DNA from: Longimicrobiales bacterium
GTDB lineage: Bacteria > Gemmatimonadota > Gemmatimonadetes > Longimicrobiales > Gaopeijiaceae
NCBI GenBank assembly: GCA_965116905.1
Contig: OZ220732.1
Span: 736,001 to 800,000 of the forward strand
Length of the DNA stretch: 64,000 nucleotides
Reading direction: 5' to 3'
How positions within the stretch are numbered: position 1 is the first letter of the stretch; the number at the start of each line of letters is the position of its first letter. Both the position numbers and the translations under genes were made by a program. Shown piece by piece: positions 35,397 through 56,210 of this stretch. Under the pieces are notes generated by a model that saw nothing but the letters and a program-made list of their open reading frames with translations, was not told where the DNA came from and did no database searches.

Positions 35397-36512
35397 TCAG
35401 AACAGGGTCGGATTGGGCAGCCGGAAGCGGACGCGACATCCTGCCGGGTAGCTGAAGCGCCTTTTCCGGGTTCCGGGCTCGACCTCGATTCGCTCGGCTT
35501 GTTCCATGGCTTTCAGCTGCTTCCTTAGGTGCCCTTCGTGGAATATGGTCGCGTCGGACTGCACGAATGTCACTACTTCCTCAATCGACACCCACCCCGC
35601 GTCGCGGAACCTTCGGTCGAGCGCGTCCGTGAGGGCTGTGAAGTCAGGCTCGGCAACACCGAGCATCACCATCTGCTCGGAGTCGCCCCCCCGAAAACTG
35701 AAGTCTCCAAATGGAGCGACCTTCCAGATTGCCTGCTTCATGCGGTCTGACCCGAGCGAGTGACCAGTGGCGAAGAACACGGAGTACCTGAGACTATTCC
35801 CCTTGTACAGGTGAAAGTGGAGCACATGGCTAGCGCCAGCGCTCTTGAGCTGGGCCTTGTAGAGGGAGTAGAGATGCCGACGCCGGTCACTACCATCCAT
35901 CGCCGCTGCTTGTCGCCACTCGGTGGTGCCGAACAACGCGTCCATGTGGGGCTCGAATTCTTCCGTGGTCAAGAAGCGGTTGATCTCCTCCCACATGAAC
36001 GTGACGTACACCTCGCATCTCGGGTTCTCGAGAATGCCCCGGACCACGCTGAGCGGGATGTCCTTGACGCCGAATGGGTCCATCATCACGAGGGCCGGGG
36101 CCATTTGCTTCTTTTGATCTTCCAGTTCCTGGAGCACTTCGGCCATACGGGATTGGAACGAGTCTTCCAGCACGTGGACTTGCGCGCTCGAGGGCAACTT
36201 GGGTCGCCACCGATTCACCCGCCCGTTGAGGTGTGCCGCTCGCTTGGGATCCTGCTCAATGAACACGAACACCACTTCTGCGCGGATGGTTGCCGGGTGC
36301 TCGGCCAGCACCCGCATGGCCACCACCGCGGAACCTTCTTCACCCCCGGCGTATTCGCCCGGTCCAGCGAACCCGTCGACGAATAGAATCCGACCATTCG
36401 CATTTCCCATGCCCAGAATCGGAAACCAGGCCTTCAGATACTCCGCCAGCAGGAGATGCTTGCCTTCTGTGTGGTCGTCTCGCTCCCAAATCGTCGCCCT
36501 TGGTGCTGCCAT
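35397..36512 (-). CDS. tcmP: Three-Cys-motif partner protein (TcmP family, SAM-binding fold)
   Basis: HTEGKHLLLAEYLKAW, FVDGFAGPGEY...GS, FIEQD, MDPFG; adjacent to DUF5131. Confidence 0.85.
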   Translation of the reverse strand: MAAPRATIWERDDHTEGKHLLLAEYLKAWFPILGMGNANGRILFVDGFAGPGEYAGGEEGSAVVAMRVLAEHPATIRAEVVFVFIEQDPKRAAHLNGRVNRWRPKLPSSAQVHVLEDSFQSRMAEVLQELEDQKKQMAPALVMMDPFGVKDIPLSVVRGILENPRCEVYVTFMWEEINRFLTTEEFEPHMDALFGTTEWRQAAAMDGSDRRRHLYSLYKAQLKSAGASHVLHFHLYKGNSLRYSVFFATGHSLGSDRMKQAIWKVAPFGDFSFRGGDSEQMVMLGVAEPDFTALTDALDRRFRDAGWVSIEEVVTFVQSDATIFHEGHLRKQLKAMEQAERIEVEPGTRKRRFSYPAGCRVRFRLPNPTLF

Positions 36513-36517
36513 CGACT

Positions 36518-37315
36518 CTACGCTAGCTCTACTTTGTCCTCGCCCGGAAACTCGTCCCAGGTCACCCCATCCAGCTCCCGTCCTCCGGCCTTTGGCGTCC
36601 GGCCACCCCACTGCTTGAAGAAGAACGGCACCCGCGCCGACCGGCACTGATCCCGCAGCTGCCTCGCCCACTGGCGACTCATCGGCCGCGCTCGCGCCCC
36701 GCTCTCGCCACCCACGATGACCCAATGCAGTCCCGCCGCCTGGTCGGACCCGTTCAGGAAGCCTCCCAGGTCAAGGGGGCCCAGCAGAGGCTCGCAGCTG
36801 AGAAAGCGGATGACGGCCGGGACCGCGAGAAGGTGCCGCACCCGGTAGTCAACCGCCTGATCCTCCACCGAGGTGCCGATCCAGATGTGGGCCGGAAGGC
36901 CGTCGGGCAGCAGGTCCCGGTTACGCCCGACGAACTTCGCCGCTCGGGCCGGTCGCTTGGTCAGCACCTGATACACGTGTCGATCCACGTCAAGCATCAC
37001 GCGGAAGCACCGCCTCACGAACTCCTCCGGAACGTCGCGGTGGAACAGGTCCGACATGGAGTTGACGAATACGCGCCGCGGAGCCCGCCAGGATCCCGGG
37101 ATCGCGAGCCTTGCCGGCCACACTCTGACCGCGAAGGGGTCGGCGCGGTTTTCGGGGGTGTCCACGACCGGCATGCGCGCCCGATAGGTGGTCGCCAGCA
37201 GCCTCTGGGAAAGGGTCGCCGCGTAGCAGTGGTCGCACCCCCGTGAAACGCGGGTGCATCCCGTCGTCGGGTTCCAGGTCGCGTCGGTCCATTCGATCGC
37301 GCTGCGGTCGGGCAC
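36518..37315 (-). CDS. DUF5131 / phage Gp37-Gp68 family (radical-SAM-like)
   Basis: IEWTDATWNPTTGCTRVSRGCDHCYA, FVNSMSDLFH, LTKRP, RFLSCEPLLG, WVIVGGESG, FFFKQWG; GTG start with GGAGG RBS. Confidence 0.92.
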   Translation of the reverse strand: MPDRSAIEWTDATWNPTTGCTRVSRGCDHCYAATLSQRLLATTYRARMPVVDTPENRADPFAVRVWPARLAIPGSWRAPRRVFVNSMSDLFHRDVPEEFVRRCFRVMLDVDRHVYQVLTKRPARAAKFVGRNRDLLPDGLPAHIWIGTSVEDQAVDYRVRHLLAVPAVIRFLSCEPLLGPLDLGGFLNGSDQAAGLHWVIVGGESGARARPMSRQWARQLRDQCRSARVPFFFKQWGGRTPKAGGRELDGVTWDEFPGEDKVELA

Positions 37316-37507
37316 GGCTGCCTCCTGGTTGGTAGGGTGCGGAATCGAGCCGAAAGATACCGTCTTCGGGTTTTGTTCGCCATCTCTATCTCGTGGCGGC
37401 CGGCCATTTGGGACGGCCTCGGTCCCCATCCAGTCCATGGTTCCTGCTGACGAACGGAGGGGAAGAACAGGGCGACGACGTGCAGTCCCGGTGACGTCGG
37501 CCACCCC

Positions 37508-38385
37508 GAATGGTACGGAGCCAGAGGGGAGAGTCCCTCAGGCCCATCAGGATGGTCCTCGTCGGGCTCGATGCGAGCGCCCACCGAATGGTGTCCTACC
37601 TGGCGGACAGGGCCATCGACGTCCGGCTGGTGACCTTCCATGGCTACGTTCACGACTCAAGAGATGCTGTTGGCCAGGCAGGTACGGGCTGCGGACGATA
37701 CCCGTACGTCGTCCGCCGGTCCGCCAACCGCGTTTGACCTGAAACGGAAGGCCACCGAGCACGGCGTCGCGGAGATCTGGCAGGATGCACGGGAATCGCT
37801 GGACTACAGTGTCGGACGTACTACACGAAAGCCGGCATCACCTATCTGCAGCGGACGACCACCCTGCCCGATGGCGTGCGTGTCCGCAGGTCGCATTCCG
37901 TAACGATCGGCGAGGCCGGAGAAATCCGGATCACGTTCTACCCGGCGGCCGTCGACCTGTGCTACGAGGAGTTCGAGCAGCTCAAGCGTGCGATTCCATT
38001 CGGAGCCGAGAAGCGCCCGAACGCGCCGGCGACGCGACGGGCGACGAATCGGTGGTACTGTCGGCTCGACGAACGGTCATGGCAGAGGTTCAGGACGCCT
38101 CTGATTGCGTTTGTGCGGGCCGTGGAGGACGCTTGGCGGGGGCATGAGCGGAAGGTGGCGGATGCCGGTAGCGCGCGCGTTGCGACAGACGAAGCGGAGT
38201 TGGGGAACAGGTAGTCCTTTCGACTGGGGGGATTGCCGAGCCGCAACGAACCCCGGCATGACCTGCCTGCAGCGGACGACCTGCCTGCCTGACGACGTGC
38301 GTGTCCGCGGGTCGGTTCCGAGACGATCGACATCTTGGACAGATACGGAACACATTCTGTCCGGCGGCCGTCGCAGGCCGACCGT
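37508..38385 (+). repeat. Truncated-gene scaffold repeat, copy B (frameshifted) plus degenerate echo
   Basis: Begins at EWYG; several frameshifts to the stop at 38214; decayed second partial copy at about 38253-38385. Confidence 0.9.
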
Positions 38386-41845: not shown

Positions 41846-42189
41846 AAGATATGTCCGTATCGATGTTAACGGGTGGACGATTACGCGAACCTTCGAATCA
41901 GTATAGGCCATTCCATACTACGAGGCAACTCCCACCATCCTCGCTTGCCCTTGAGTGCTCGGGTCCGGCGCCGCGGCCTCGGGGGCTAGGCTTGACCGTG
42001 TGGGACCGCCCGGTGAACCGCTGGAAGAAGCCCCTCGACCTAGGCCTAGGCTATGTACGGCAGGGAGCCCCCACTTAAGTCGCCCAACCGTCAAGACGAC
42101 GAGGCTGGAGGATACACCTCTTGGGGGTACCGTGGGTTCACAGTCAATCCCTTCGCCTTCGAGCCTTCACGATCCGATTAGGGCGGGAT

Positions 42190-42510
42190 TCACTCTTCTC
42201 GGTCATCTTCGATTAGCGCCTCCGTCACCTTCTTGACCAGGTTGAGGGTCCTCGAGTTCGATCGCGACGCTCGCAGGAAAACGGGGTCGACCAACACGGT
42301 GGGACTATCAGACCCACGACCCAGAAGCGCGTCAGTGCTCAGTTCGAGGGCGTCGGCCAAACGAACGAGCGATTCGAGCGACGGCGCACGCTGTCCGGTT
42401 TCGAAGTGAGAAACGGAGGCCGCGGCAATCCCGGCTTTGGCTCCCAGCTCAGCTTGCGTCAGGCCGCGCATCTTGCGGTTCTCCCGCAGCCGCTCGGGCA
42501 GGCCATCCAT
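42190..42510 (-). CDS. XRE-family HTH regulator, divergent from the Ubl operon
   Basis: RGLTQAELGAKAGIAAASVSHFETGQRAPSLESL. Confidence 0.9.
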   Translation of the reverse strand: MDGLPERLRENRKMRGLTQAELGAKAGIAAASVSHFETGQRAPSLESLVRLADALELSTDALLGRGSDSPTVLVDPVFLRASRSNSRTLNLVKKVTEALIEDDREE

Positions 42511-42529
42511 CGGCGTTTCGTATCTCCCC

Positions 42530-42589
42530 TTGACGTGGCCTCACGATTCGTATAGCGTTTCACTACGATGTCGCAGCATTCGCTACGAC
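42530..42589 (+). promoter_or_regulatory. Putative sigma70 promoter with overlapping operator-like repeats
   Basis: TTGACG-N17-TAGCGT; imperfect palindrome GTCGCAGCATTCGCTACGAC; repeated AGC...CTACGA units. Confidence 0.5.
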
Positions 42590-42631
42590 TAAGCATAGCC
42601 CGCGAAAGGGCTCCAAGCAAGGAGGGGAACG

Positions 42632-42874
42632 ATGTCGGAGCGAGGAAAGGACCTGATCATCTACGTGAACCGTCGCAAGTTCGATGACGGTGACGGGGTC
42701 AAGCCACACATGACCGGTGGCGAGATCGCGCTGCTCGTGGACGTGCCGCCCGGGAACGCCGTGGTCCGACTCGATAGGCGCGGCGACAAGAGGGAGATCG
42801 CGGAGAAGGAAGGGGTCGATATCAAGCACGACGATCACTTTCTCGTGACGCGGAAAGTCGTCGAGGGGGGTTGA
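42632..42874 (+). CDS. Ubiquitin-like (multiubiquitin/beta-grasp) protein ending in di-Gly
   Basis: IIYVNRRKF...MTGGEIALL...VDIKHDDHFLVTRKVVEGG*; AAGGAGG RBS. Confidence 0.85.
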   Translation: MSERGKDLIIYVNRRKFDDGDGVKPHMTGGEIALLVDVPPGNAVVRLDRRGDKREIAEKEGVDIKHDDHFLVTRKVVEGG

Positions 42875-43275
42875 TGAACCAGGATCGGATAGTGCGCGAA
42901 CTACGCGCATTGGAGGAGGGCGGGCAGGTAGCGAAGTTGGTGACCGTCTCGCGACCCGTCGTGGTCTATTACGATGTTCCGACCGCTGGTGAAGAGAGGG
43001 ATCTGCCTTCCGAATCAGATGTCATAGTGCCCGTACCCAGCGGCTACCCTGGGGGCATCATCGACCTCGCTGGCCTGCCCGTGGACTCTCCGTTCCTGGG
43101 TCTCGTCAAGGGTGGCCGAAACAGCCAAGGTCTCATCAGTGTCTGCGACCGCGAGTGGCAGCTCGCCAGCTACCATCCGCATAACGGCGGCGGCGGTCCC
43201 CCATGGGATCCGAATCGTCACGGCTTTCACACCTACCTGGATCACTTGATCGCATGGCTAGCCCATCTGAACTGA
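42874..43275 (+). CDS. Prokaryotic E2/UBC-like protein (family E-like)
   Basis: DVIVPVPSGYP...WQLASYH...WDPNRHGFHTYLDHLIAWL; coupled to the Ubl stop. Confidence 0.78.
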   Translation: MNQDRIVRELRALEEGGQVAKLVTVSRPVVVYYDVPTAGEERDLPSESDVIVPVPSGYPGGIIDLAGLPVDSPFLGLVKGGRNSQGLISVCDREWQLASYHPHNGGGGPPWDPNRHGFHTYLDHLIAWLAHLN

Positions 43276-44726
43276 ACGGTAGGCGGACTGGGAGCGTCAT
43301 CGTTCGGATAAGCAACCCCGAACGGGACGACCTGCTCCGTTTGATGTTTTCTCGATACCCGAAGGAAGAGTGGGCCACGTTCGTCAGATTCGGGTGGCGA
43401 GACACAGGCAGTACTCTGGTCCTGACGCTGGCGGGTATCGACGCGCCCCAGCCCGGAGAGCTGGATGAGCGGGTGGATCACGTGGCAATCCTGGAGCCGT
43501 ATACGCTGCGCATTGCGCTCGATGCCGAGACGCACCCGTTGGCCGTCGGTGTTGTTCACAGCCACCCGGAGGGTTGCCCACCTGTACCGAGCCTGATCGA
43601 CGACGATATGGACACCTACTTCGCCGACTACCTTGCTGGGTTCGCCCCTGGGCGACCGTACGTCAGTTTGATCGTCTCTCAGGTCGACGACCAGGTAGTT
43701 TTTGGGGGCCGCGTCTTCCACGATGGCCATTGGTACCCAATTGCGCGGTTTCCATCTGATTGCGAGCCGGTACATGTTCATCATCAGGAGAGGCCCGACT
43801 CGGCTGACCTTGAGACAGTAGCTCGACTCGCTGCCGCGTTTGGAGACGATGCGGCGCGCAGACTCCGGGAGGCCACGGTCGGCGTGGTCGGCGCCGGCGG
43901 GACGGGCTCGGTGGCCATTGAGGTCTTGGCACGTGCTGGCGTGGGCCGGTTGATCATCGTCGATCCTGACCACCTGGAGCCCTCCAATCTCGAGCGCGTT
44001 CATGGCAGTTGCGCCGATGATGGAGTGGCGCGCTTGAGCAAGTCGGAGATTGCACGGCGTCACGTTAGCGCGATCAATAGGCGATGTGAGGTTGTCGCCG
44101 TAAAGGGAGCGCTACCTCAGGAGCTCGCCATAGACAAGCTCGTCGAGGCAGACGTAGTCCTCGGTTGCACGGACCAGCAACACAGCCGCCTTGCTCTAAG
44201 TGACCTCGTGGTCCGCTACCTCGTGCCGGCAATCGACTGTGGCGTTGCGTTGGAAGGGAGCGAGGGAGTCGTTCGTGGCCAGATAATGCAATTGCTGCGC
44301 TGGCTACCAGCGGACCCGTGCGCCATATGCCGCGGGCTCATTAATCCACGTCGGGTCTCCCAGGAACTCATGTCCGAGCAGGAGCGAGAGTCCCGGCGGT
44401 TGGCGGCCCAAGCGGCCAATCCGGACGGCCGACCCGATAGTGCGTACTGGGAGGACATCCCTCAGCTAAACACCGTTGGCTACCTAACCACGACGGCGGG
44501 AGCGCTGGCGGCAGGCTACGCCGTTGGTTGGATCACCGGACGCTTCGAGCCTCCATTCGAGCGGCTCCAAATGAACCTCACAGCACCCGAGTTTGAGGTC
44601 ATTGCTTGGGAGGAAGTAGCCAACGACGGATGTGCGTGCCGAAGGGTACGTGGCTGGGGCGACCAAGGAAGCGCAGAGGCTTGGGTAACACCTCCTGACC
44701 ACTGGCCGGCCGCCGTGGTCCTGTAG
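43254..44726 (+). CDS. JAB/MPN peptidase - ThiF/E1 fusion
   Basis: EEWATF...VGVVHSHPEGCPPVPSLIDD (JAMM); VGAGGTGS, DPDHLEPSNLERV, LGCTD, PCAIC...CAC (E1). Confidence 0.9.
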   Translation: MASPSELNGRRTGSVIVRISNPERDDLLRLMFSRYPKEEWATFVRFGWRDTGSTLVLTLAGIDAPQPGELDERVDHVAILEPYTLRIALDAETHPLAVGVVHSHPEGCPPVPSLIDDDMDTYFADYLAGFAPGRPYVSLIVSQVDDQVVFGGRVFHDGHWYPIARFPSDCEPVHVHHQERPDSADLETVARLAAAFGDDAARRLREATVGVVGAGGTGSVAIEVLARAGVGRLIIVDPDHLEPSNLERVHGSCADDGVARLSKSEIARRHVSAINRRCEVVAVKGALPQELAIDKLVEADVVLGCTDQQHSRLALSDLVVRYLVPAIDCGVALEGSEGVVRGQIMQLLRWLPADPCAICRGLINPRRVSQELMSEQERESRRLAAQAANPDGRPDSAYWEDIPQLNTVGYLTTTAGALAAGYAVGWITGRFEPPFERLQMNLTAPEFEVIAWEEVANDGCACRRVRGWGDQGSAEAWVTPPDHWPAAVVL

Positions 44727-44904
44727 CTAAGCCCGATATGGCTCGACATCACCGCAATACGATGCCATCGCGGCCGTACGTCCCCCGTCCACGTCAACGA
44801 CGAGCTCGTCCAGCGCGTCCGCGACTCTAGCGCCGTCGGGTTGGCCGCCTGGGCTACTGCAGATGCCCGCACTCTCGCAGGCTCCGGATGGGAGATGCCA
44901 AGAA

Positions 44905-45780
44905 ATGACAGCAAGCTACGGTTCAGGAGATGTGTCCATCACACCATCCACGGTAGGCAACGTCGCCGTGTCGAACGTTCGCGCCGTCCCGGCCCTGATC
45001 CCCCGAATTCGCTTCGATCTGTCCTGGACCCTACACAACGCTTTCACCCTGGAAGAGGGCCATCGGGGAAAGCAGTTCATCCTCACCGACTTCCGGGGCG
45101 AGCTGACGGTCGGGCCTGACAATCTGTTCGTCGGCAACCTCGTTCGGGACGGATCGGGCCACCCCATTCCGTCGCTGTCCCATGTGCGAGCGCACACGGG
45201 CTCCGTCGCTCTCGATCTGGATGGACATAGGCTCGAACGCCTGGAAGAGCATCGGGCAGGAGGCGTGCTTACCATGCAGATGCAGCTGTGGCCCCGTGTC
45301 GAGATGGACGGGAAGACAATTAATGCCACGGTCGCCGGAATCCGGCTCCAGGTCCCGCGTGACGAATGGCTGGCGGTGGTCGGCGGATTCACCGGAGAAC
45401 AGATCGACCTCTTTGAGATCCGCTACCACCTCACGCACGCGAGTCGTTTCCGGCCAAGCGTCGGGGTGCTCCAGCGTGCGCGCGAGGCCGTCGATCGGGG
45501 GGATTTCGACGCCGCCGTGATCCAGGCGAGAAAGGCCATCAGCCTCTCGGCCGAGTCTTTCCAAGGGCCCGACGGAGGCAGCCTCTTTGCCACCCTCACC
45601 GACAGACTCGACGACGACCATGCGAAGCTCTACGCGGGCCTGGTTGGCCGTGCCAAGGTCATGGGCAACCTTACCGCGCACAGTGCCTCGGCCCGCGAGT
45701 ACACGCGTGGCGAAGCGCTGTTCGCCATCCGCTTCGCAACGATCCTGCTCGAACTGATTGCCGGGTTGGTGTCAGATTGA
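44905..45780 (+). CDS. Hypothetical protein (beta-rich N-terminus, helical HEPN-like C-terminus)
   Basis: 291 aa; C-terminus GDFDAAVIQARKAI...MGNLTAH...EALFAI resembles HEPN/Abi-type helical bundles. Confidence 0.6.
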   Translation: MTASYGSGDVSITPSTVGNVAVSNVRAVPALIPRIRFDLSWTLHNAFTLEEGHRGKQFILTDFRGELTVGPDNLFVGNLVRDGSGHPIPSLSHVRAHTGSVALDLDGHRLERLEEHRAGGVLTMQMQLWPRVEMDGKTINATVAGIRLQVPRDEWLAVVGGFTGEQIDLFEIRYHLTHASRFRPSVGVLQRAREAVDRGDFDAAVIQARKAISLSAESFQGPDGGSLFATLTDRLDDDHAKLYAGLVGRAKVMGNLTAHSASAREYTRGEALFAIRFATILLELIAGLVSD

Positions 45781-46602: not shown

Positions 46603-46775
46603 CAACGCCTTCAAGATCGAAGCCTCTGGTCGCCAAAATCATCCGGCGCAACGGGGCCGGTCGCCGCGGCAAGTATCCTCCGCCAAGCGCCTGACAGCGG
46701 CGCTAGATCTTCCTTGGCCCTCACCCAGACCTGTCGACCCGCCTCGCCTGCTCGGCGGTATGCCCAGCGCGCAAT

Positions 46776-47438
46776 CTCAGGCCCATCAGGATGGTCCTCG
46801 TCGGTCTCGGGCTCGATGCGAGCGCCCACCGAGTGGTGTCCGACCTGGCGGACAGGGCTATCGACATCCGGCTGGTGACCTTCCATGGCTACGTCAACGA
46901 CCAGGAGATGCTGTTGGCCAGGCAGGTACGGGTTGCGGCCGATACCCGTACGTCGTCCACCGCTCCGCCAAGCGCGTCCGACCTGAAACGGAAGGCCACC
47001 GAGCACGGAGTCGCGGCGATCTGGCAGGACGCACGGGGATCGCTGGACTACAGTGTTCGGCCGTACCACACGAAAGCCGGCATCACCTACCTGCAGCGGA
47101 CGACCACCCTGCCCGATGGCGTGCGTGTCCGCGGGTCGCATTCCGTAACGATCAGCGAGGCCGGGGAGATACGGATCACGTTCTATCCGGCGGCCGTCGA
47201 CCTGTACCACGAGGAGTTCGAGCAGCTCAAGCGTGCGATTCCATTCCAAGCCGAGAAGCCCCCGAACGCCCTTGCGACGCGACGCGCGCCGGATCAGTGG
47301 TATTGCCGGCTCGACGAACGGTCATGGCAGGGGGGCAGGGCGCGTCTGATCGAGTTTGTGAGGGCCGTGGAGCACGCGTGGCGCGAGCACGAGCGGAAGG
47401 TGGCGGACGGGGGTGGAGACGTTGCGGCGGATGCGTAA
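46776..47438 (+). repeat. Truncated-gene scaffold repeat, copy C (open frame 46791-47438)
   Basis: LRPIRMVLVGLGLDASAHR...IRLVTFHGY...WREHERK; starts further 3' than copy D. Confidence 0.9.
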
Positions 47439-55049: not shown

Positions 55050-56210
55050 GGATTCCCGGAACCCTTCTGGCCGAGCGATCCGGCAAGGACGGCATCGAAC
55101 GCATAGGGGACTTCGAGGAATGGTACGGAAGCCAGGGGGGAGAGTCCCTCCGGCCCGTCAGGACGGTCCTCGTCGGTCTCGGGCTCGATGCGAGCGCCCA
55201 CCGAATGGTGCCCTACCTGGCGGACAGGGCTATCGAGATCCGGCTGGTGACCTTCCATGGCTACGTCAACGACCAGGAGATGCTGTTGGCCAGGCAGGTA
55301 CGGGCTGCCGACGATACCCGTTCGTCGTCCGCCGGTCCGCCAAGCGCGTCCGACCTGAAACGGAAGGCCACCGAGCACGGAGTTGCGGCGATCTGGCAGG
55401 ATGCCCGAGAATCGCTGGACTACAGTGTCCGGACGTACTGCACGAAAGCCGGCATCACCTACCTGCAGCGGACGACCACCCTGCCCGATGGCGTGCGTGT
55501 CCGCGGGTCGCACTGCGTAACGATCGGCGAGGCCGGGGGAATCCGGATCACGTTCTATCCGTCGGCCGTCGTCCTGTGCCACGAGGAGTTCGAGCAGGTC
55601 GGGGATGCGGTTTCGTTCGAAGGCGGAGAGCCCCCGAACGCGCTTGGGACGCGACGTGCGCCGAACCAGTGGTATTGCAGGCTCGACGAGCAGTCGTGGC
55701 AGCGGGGCAGGGCGCGTCTGATCGAGTTTGTTCGGGCCGTAGAGGACGCGTGGCGGGAGCATGAGCGGAAGGTGGTGGACGGGGCTGGAGGGCGGGTTGC
55801 GACGGACGAAGTGGAGCTGGAGGACAAGTAGTCCTGCCGACTCGGGAGATTGTTGAACCGGACCGAAGTCCGGCATCACCTGCCTGCAACGGACGACCAT
55901 CCTGCCCGACGACGCGCGTGTCCGCGGGTCGCATTCCGTGATGGTCGACGAACTCGGACATACGGACCAGTTCCTGTCCGAGGGGCCTGTGCCACGAGGA
56001 GTTCGAGCAGCTCGGGGATGCGATTCCATTCGAAGCCGGGAGTTCCGAACGCCTCGGCGACGCGTCGCGCGCCGAAACAGTGGTATGCAGGCGGGAAGGG
56101 GGGAGGAGAAAAGGGCGGCGATGGCAGTTGCGGTCGCGGTGGCCGGACGGAACTGCAGCGAGTGGGAAAAGGGCATTGGGGGAGGTTGAGCGGGTCACGC
56201 GGCGGTGGGA
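55050..56210 (+). repeat. Truncated-gene scaffold repeat, copy D (longest) plus degenerate echo
   Basis: LLAERSGKDGIERIGDFEEWYG...VLVGLG... to the stop at 55831; decayed partial copy at 55870-56090. Confidence 0.9.

Follow-up and report, generated by a model that had tools for sequence, protein, structure and literature searches.

A Type I Bub-like ubiquitin-conjugation cassette without bubE in a Longimicrobiales bacterium, cut off from the predicted papain-fold protease arm of its relatives

The closest described systems to the locus reported here are the Type I Bub operons (class 6e of Iyer et al. 2006, PMC1779556; Ye, Gong, Chambers and Corbett, bioRxiv 10.1101/2024.11.21.623953), represented by BubAB, BubCD and BubE of Citrobacter (6E.1/DUF6527; PDB 9ea4, 9eae). 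Two activities have been demonstrated for the Citrobacter proteins: trimming by the JAB peptidase domain of BubCD, and an oxyester relay through a tyrosine and a serine (10.1101/2024.11.21.623953). Bil operons (BilABCD, PMC10557695) likewise hold a ubiquitin-like protein (Ubl), E2, JAB and E1 in one operon, with JAB-trimmed tails and an E1 zinc site, but they have catalytic cysteines in both E1 and E2, an IAD-AAD-CYS E1 and a stand-alone JAB. Here we describe a related cassette within a 64,000-nucleotide stretch, hereafter the window, of contig OZ220732.1 (assembly GCA_965116905.1, positions 736,001 to 800,000) from a Longimicrobiales bacterium. It is a Type I Bub-like cassette with three intact genes, from an uncatalogued branch that lacks bubE, and it is truncated, having been cut off from a linked papain-fold protease module. 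Its features, in window coordinates, are as follows:

42190..42510, minus strand: XRE/CapH-like repressor, 106 aa (Pfam HTH_3, 3e-15; best PADLOC match capH, 1e-14; subfamily common to 19 split loci including the window)
42180..42190, no strand: breakpoint, where DNA homology to relatives stops at the XRE stop codon; IetA/IetS follow in the window
42530..42558, plus strand: predicted sigma-70-type promoter of the Ubl operon, TTGACG-17 bases-TAGCGT (motif conservation)
42541..42595, no strand: three predicted operator sites spaced by about 21 bases (consensus TAC-N6-GTA in the family; the window has no perfect copy)
42632..42874, plus strand: predicted single-domain BubA-like Ubl, 80 aa, tail-less with a VEGG end (Multi_ubiq family matches and Atlas neighbours; sequence basis only)
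42874..43275, plus strand: BubB-like E2, predicted UBC fold, 133 aa (D64, S99, H101; sole cysteine C91; model and Foldseek)
43254..44726, plus strand: BubCD-like JAB peptidase-E1 fusion (JAB-E1), 490 aa (JAMM E39/H102/H104/D116; zinc C356/C359/C460/C462; crossover-loop Y398, codon 44445-44447)

The four genes that a first-pass annotation of these letters had proposed are all present where it placed them. The Ubl ends in VEGG-stop and is coupled to the E2, whose ATG at 42874 overlaps the Ubl stop (TGATG); the E2 carries the motif WQLASYH and one cysteine; and a JAMM peptidase is fused to a ThiF/E1 domain. The E2 and JAB-E1 reading frames also overlap, and the start of JAB-E1 is most likely ATG 43254 rather than 43203, giving the same length as an identical database protein (P0121). 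Among the domain profiles that had been suggested as a check, ThiF scored above its cut-off (2e-34), as did HTH_3 for the repressor (3e-15), but Multi_ubiq (0.008), Prok-E2_E (0.03) and Prok-JAB (5e-4) fell under their own. Genes in this order are found at 75 loci across many phyla, so the operon is not a chance arrangement.

Among solved structures the best match of JAB-E1 was BubCD (3e-32 by profile), spanning both domains. The JAMM residues E39, H102, H104 and D116 are kept in 183-184 of 185 homologues and the zinc cysteines (CxxC/CxC) in 184-185 of them, whereas the Citrobacter enzyme has no CxxC. The crossover loop is cysteine-free in 176 of the 185, and Y398 within it is invariant (185/185). 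Together with the E2 described below, the invariant tyrosine and the cysteine-free loop fit the Tyr/Ser oxyester relay of Citrobacter Bub.

Sequence searches of solved structures with the E2 gave no meaningful match, and it was placed by fold search alone. The E2 model (pLDDT 83.6) had a single Foldseek match under E 0.001, Citrobacter BubB (9eae_C; E 6e-4, TM 0.60), in keeping with the UBC fold that the annotation had expected of the middle protein. We collected 539 homologues; D64, S99 and H101 are invariant in the best 120 of these plus the query (121/121), C91 is not conserved, and 78 of the 120 have no cysteine at all. The solved BubB can be aligned with a canonical BubB taken from a bubE-linked locus, which in turn aligns weakly with the window E2 family (probability 19.5, E 0.001); through this bridge S99, H101 and D64 fall on BubB S333, H335 and D299, the residues named in the Bub paper (10.1101/2024.11.21.623953). 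The protein thus has the features of a UBC-fold E2 in which Ser-x-His and an Asp would take the place of the cysteine, as judged from the model and conservation, and the annotation's description of a Bub-like serine E2 is supported by the BubB fold match, the three invariant residues and BubCD as the best relative of the E1.

The third protein, the Ubl, had no meaningful match in a profile search of solved structures. Multi_ubiq was matched at E<=0.1 by 38 of 43 members of its family (best 8e-10), its Atlas neighbours are Multi_ubiq clusters (score 0.95), and E78-G79-G80 is invariant in all 43. These features are those of a predicted beta-grasp Ubl with a terminal glycine that is exposed or cleavable. 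In 45 of the 75 loci Ubl and E2 are fused, the GG lying where they join; the two are split in 26, and four loci gave no Ubl match. Such splitting is not new, as 31 split rows stand in the first part of Table S1 of the Bub paper (10.1101/2024.11.21.623953). In 21 of the 26 split relatives a tail of 2-11 residues follows the GG, in most cases an out-of-frame reading of the overlapping E2 start, and only five stop at GG; in the metagenome set a GG end was found in 4 of 49 Ubls (one row mis-parsed). Given the tails and the 45 fused loci, the JAB would normally mature the tag; its site is also intact in tail-less lineages, so it may have a second role. The tail-less Ubl, which the first-pass annotation took to be pre-matured, is a minority state (5/26), and the corollary drawn there, that the JAB mainly deconjugates, is weak: maturation would be its usual task, and the characterised BubCD JAB did not strip conjugates (Ye et al., bioRxiv 10.1101/2024.11.21.623953).

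With Type I Bub the cassette shares the JAB-E1 fusion, the cysteine-free E2 active site with Asp/Ser-x-His, the cysteine-free crossover loop with an invariant tyrosine, a Multi_ubiq-type Ubl (split from the E2 in part of Table S1 as well), a divergent helix-turn-helix regulator and a defence-island context. It differs in having no bubE, in its separate branch of the E1 tree and in a Ubl that ends at GG. We found no DUF6527 (bubE) in its own genome, a single contig that is 97% complete, whereas among relatives, for which 50 of the 75 loci were submitted, DUF6527 occurs in six of the 50 genomes; each of these six regions is either a separate, canonical Bub operon or a solitary bubE, and a seventh match is a partial gene in locus L017. 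A BubE profile built from six genes of this kind matched one of 155 related loci, again the partial, opposite-strand gene of L017; 60 genome loci carry at least 1 kb of DNA after E1. That gene (L017 10059-10397, minus strand) faces the end of the operon beside an integrase and is likely a remnant of another Bub operon. In a quick tree of 50 E1s, built with every second fused row left out, four bubE-linked E1s are set apart from the window branch by long branches, and the window E1 is sister to that of L001. The operon list of the Bub paper was collected by DUF6527 (10.1101/2024.11.21.623953), so operons without bubE are missing from it, and using bubE as a criterion for Type I Bub is circular.

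The annotation had called the operon complete, which fails on two counts: bubE is absent, and two conserved genes behind the XRE gene have been lost. In relatives, the XRE gene is followed by a gene of ~70 codons and then by one for a ~505-residue peptidase, an arrangement found by neighbour clustering in 16 of the 75 genome loci, all within the window's clade. The divergent XRE regulator had been recognized correctly (Pfam HTH_3), but not as the stump of a three-gene divergent arm. Neither additional protein obtained a Pfam, NCBIfam or PADLOC name, and a sequence search of solved structures with the peptidase gave no meaningful match, leaving the fold search alone to place it. Its model (pLDDT 80.3) has a papain fold over residues ~148-380, with staphopain as best match (Z 15.3, rmsd 3.1, 169 aligned) and a C39 double-glycine protease (Z 12.1), UfSP2 (Z 11.2) and Mug105 (Z 10.9) behind it. 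All 51 sequences compared keep the Gln, Cys, His and Asp, which together with the modelled fold characterize a predicted papain-like peptidase. As for the C39 and UFSP/ZUFSP families, close members have no Pfam match, and 2 of 5 distant members match C39_2 weakly (E 0.003-0.005). A conserved helix in the small protein contains a lysine motif resembling VKPxVKRE.

A reverse search with the peptidase returned 80 metagenome loci. Upstream of the close homologues, every informative contig carried the rest of the locus: XRE in 56 of 56, Ubl in 49 of 49, E2 in 43 of 43 and E1 in 39 of 39, in a set that leaves out six distant loci (30-38% identity) and loci with too little upstream DNA, includes some near-duplicate contigs and was searched with patterns derived from the window's clade. 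Literature searches, which did not extend to subscription journals or to the published journal article on Bub, turned up no account of a papain-like peptidase accompanying operons of this type; neither Bub preprint (10.1101/2024.11.21.623953 and 10.1101/2024.11.21.623966) contains the word 'papain', nor do the preprint on Bil and the paper on CapK/CapS. The core Bub chemistry is already published, the branch is uncatalogued, and the papain-fold arm is without description in the literature searched.

In the window genome both arm genes are absent, and the arm has been replaced by IetAS. This follows from three observations. DNA homology to L001 and L002 stops at the XRE stop codon, where IetAS begins. 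A 5400-base contig of run X4 matches window 42190 to 44792 at ~92%, the peptidase arm of L001 is covered by a contig of equal length and depth, and L001, the sister by E1, carries both genes. Finally, the IetA-XRE junction is bridged without differences by contigs of two runs from two studies, either of which may be the source of the assembly.

What the arm does is suggested by its regulatory setting. The pattern TTGAC[AG]-N16-18-TAnnnT occurs in 49 of 64 intergenic regions (mean of shuffles 0.23), a conserved promoter that a plain consensus scan did not list. TAC-N6-GTA occurs in 60 of the 64 (shuffles: mean 4.2, maximum 12), with peaks at +10-12, +33-35 and +53-55 from the -35 box, ~21 bases apart. 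The window is one of the four regions without a perfect site, and one might speculate that its imperfect operators fit relaxed repression after loss of an inducer. In 21 other loci the slot of the peptidase is filled by a Pfam M78 (IrrE/CapP-like) peptidase (a first IrrE screen gave 30 loci, of which 21 were confirmed by Pfam, as 19 of 26 plus 2). No locus carries both types, none of the 16 papain loci having an M78 gene, and L022, inside the papain clade, has a different XRE and an IrrE instead of the papain arm. The XRE of the window matches capH and conserves F78 near the start of its C-terminal part; in the published pair, CapP cuts CapH at F82-R83 (10.1101/2022.04.27.489752). At 106 residues it has no sensor domain, whereas published Bub regulators all include a sensor (10.1101/2024.11.21.623953; PMC13373217). 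Taken together, the M78 swap, the capH match, F78, the sensor-less XRE and the conserved promoter and operators favour an inducer role, to which we would give about even odds.

Relative to CapH and CapP (10.1101/2022.04.27.489752), then, the divergent capH-matching XRE, the conserved Phe and, in relatives, a peptidase gene behind it are the same. In this clade, however, the partner is a predicted cysteine peptidase of papain fold, accompanied by an additional small gene, where the published pair has an M78 metallopeptidase, and the window has no partner gene at all. The arm of XRE, small gene and papain-fold peptidase likewise differs from the CapH/CapP, CapW and CapK/CapS regulators of Type I Bub. 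Beside the window XRE there is no M78 gene; the genome has four elsewhere, all within ~70 kb around the island (window ~7891, ~25101 and two just outside the window ends). In six further loci (L042, L043, L048, L050, L052 and L057) the regulator slot upstream of a fused Ubl-E2 is filled by a conserved divergent block, consisting of a 218-aa sigma-like ORF, a 126-aa ORF, a PD-(D/E)XK nuclease and a 783-aa unnamed protein.

We prefer to read the locus as a Type I Bub-like cassette from a bubE-less branch, with a predicted E1 Tyr to E2 Ser relay, whose papain-fold arm, likely an inducer, has been lost; we give this reading a probability of roughly 0.55. On the strength of the conserved ThiF residues and of BubCD, the E1 would adenylate the terminal glycine of the Ubl. 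No trimming would be needed in the window, and in most relatives the JAB would first remove the tail or the E2. Y398 would then take the Ubl as an oxyester and pass it to S99 of the E2, aided by H101 and D64, after which the E2 may attach it to target lysines without an E3. By binding the three TAC-N6-GTA sites that overlie the promoter, the XRE would repress the operon. Where all six genes are present, stress or infection might provide the signal that releases the papain-fold peptidase from the small protein paired with it; inactivation of the repressor could then follow, as CapP inactivates CapH, a step that we hold to be about as probable as its opposite. With the arm replaced by IetAS, the cassette of the window may be silent, or leaky through its degenerate operators.

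Several observations weigh against this account. Y398 lies five residues before the proline that ends the loop, whereas Y370 of BubCD and the tyrosine of four canonical E1s lie nine residues before it. The window motif, YW-x7-8-TVG, is therefore four residues out of register with Y370 and closer to the loop end, and we infer the equivalence of the two tyrosines from loop position and invariance, not from an aligned column. Distant homologues of the peptidase occur without the cassette: it accompanies none of four in the metagenome set, and neither cassette nor subfamily XRE was found at any of 29 loci in a sample of 401 genomes, as judged from ~1.5 kb flanks and a subfamily-specific XRE profile. 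The ancestral target of the peptidase and its small gene was thus not this repressor. The peptidase gene is also interrupted in 5 of the 16 genome loci, by decay or assembly error, and, since the papain loci form one clade, their exclusion with IrrE amounts to close to one or two events. As for function, the Bub paper found no protecting operon, and no Bub operon has been shown to protect against phage (10.1101/2024.11.21.623953; PMC13373217).

A second explanation is that the papain-fold peptidase is a deconjugase that replaces BubE and cuts after the Gly-Gly of the Ubl. The intact six-gene locus would then be a bacterial ubiquitin-type pathway, with an E1 tyrosine register unlike that of BubCD, erased by a deubiquitinase of the UFSP/ZUFSP kind, in the papain fold of most eukaryotic deubiquitinases, and the window would be a tagging system that has lost its eraser. 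The absence of bubE from the branch, the invariant GG end of the Ubl family, the complete linkage of peptidase and Ubl, and fold neighbours that include double-glycine C39 proteases, UFSP and ZUFSP/Mug105 all speak for it. Yet bubE and the peptidase are both missing from the fused branch and from L022, and, as the operon exists in the fused branch without either, a separate deconjugase is not required. Distant peptidase homologues occur without any Ubl, the gene lies in the divergent regulatory transcript and not behind E1, and the best fold match is staphopain, while sharing a fold reveals no substrate. We consider a deconjugase doubtful.

Somewhat more doubtful still is that the small gene and peptidase form a toxin-antitoxin-like or abortive effector under the same repressor, with the cassette tagging either protein to release or restrain it; the window would then have lost the target. 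The two-gene module is indeed widespread on its own: the peptidase profile matches 25 of the 401 sampled genomes, with a small ORF of its own just upstream in many, and the small protein carries the lysine motif in its conserved helix. CapK/CapS, moreover, have a stand-alone toxin-antitoxin counterpart (PMC13373217). This explanation, however, leaves the induction of a sensor-less XRE unaccounted for, and such a module is missing from most loci of the wider branch. Among the wider homologues, L154, L157, L159 and L163-L191 pair a small helical ORF with a papain-fold protein of 430 to >1000 aa, without ubiquitin-like genes and under no name in Pfam, NCBIfam or PADLOC, and all four homologues found on plasmids are distant ones.

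A thioester system of the Bil type or a sulfur-carrier operon of the ThiS/MoaD type, which a ThiF domain with its zinc site of four cysteines and a small protein ending in GG might suggest, is very improbable and largely refuted: the absence of a catalytic cysteine from the E1 rules out Bil, there is no conserved cysteine in the E2 or the crossover loop and no inactive adenylation or CYS domain, the JAB is fused, the Ubl matches Multi_ubiq and not ThiS (the alternative that the annotation had itself raised), NCBIfam ThiF/MoeB scores for JAB-E1 are all far under cut-off, and the loci have no conserved sulfur-pathway neighbours.

The genomic surroundings agree with the IetAS-like and GmrSD-like neighbours described earlier: IetA and IetS adjoin the XRE gene (PADLOC 2e-77 and 8e-42), a GmrSD-type gene lies 2.8 kb downstream, and McrBC-like and PDC-M30/M41-like genes are also found within 10 kb of the operon. 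The PDC-M30/M41-like pair, a DUF5131 radical-SAM-type gene and its partner, is on the minus strand at 35397-37504. Three copies of a ~600-base repeat (37519-38112, 46758-47357 and 55130-55729; 85-93% alike, spaced by 9.2 and 8.4 kb and accompanied by shorter partial copies) partition the island, and IetAS and the Bub-like operon share one of the resulting blocks of defence-type genes; the middle copy holds a 215-aa ORF with a weak PDC-S11 match. IetS-like subtilase genes also stand beside a canonical Bub operon (L077 9485-11722) and downstream of three fused-branch operons (L034, L051, L072), and such a gene is possibly a recurring neighbour of Bub-type operons, as in the window. We considered the gene after E1 (44863-45780, weak DUF4145) as part of the operon and rejected it, as it has no homologue in the 75 loci and no downstream gene is conserved; one 92% identical contig retains it. 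We did not find JAB-E1 in any of 30 related genomes, including 18 from the same genus, which makes the cassette accessory.

The annotation had taken the position of the operon to suggest defence. The neighbours are as it described them, but a defence role is inferred only from this context, and the Bub paper found no protecting operon. As a natural deletion of the arm, the window copy is a poor choice for a defence test. More broadly, the chemistry of Bub is published, and a protease module present in every informative contig offers a concrete handle on its biological role. The shifted tyrosine bears on how general the oxyester chemistry of these E1s is, and, should the peptidase be a deconjugase, it would tie a papain-fold protease to a bacterial ubiquitin-like pathway.

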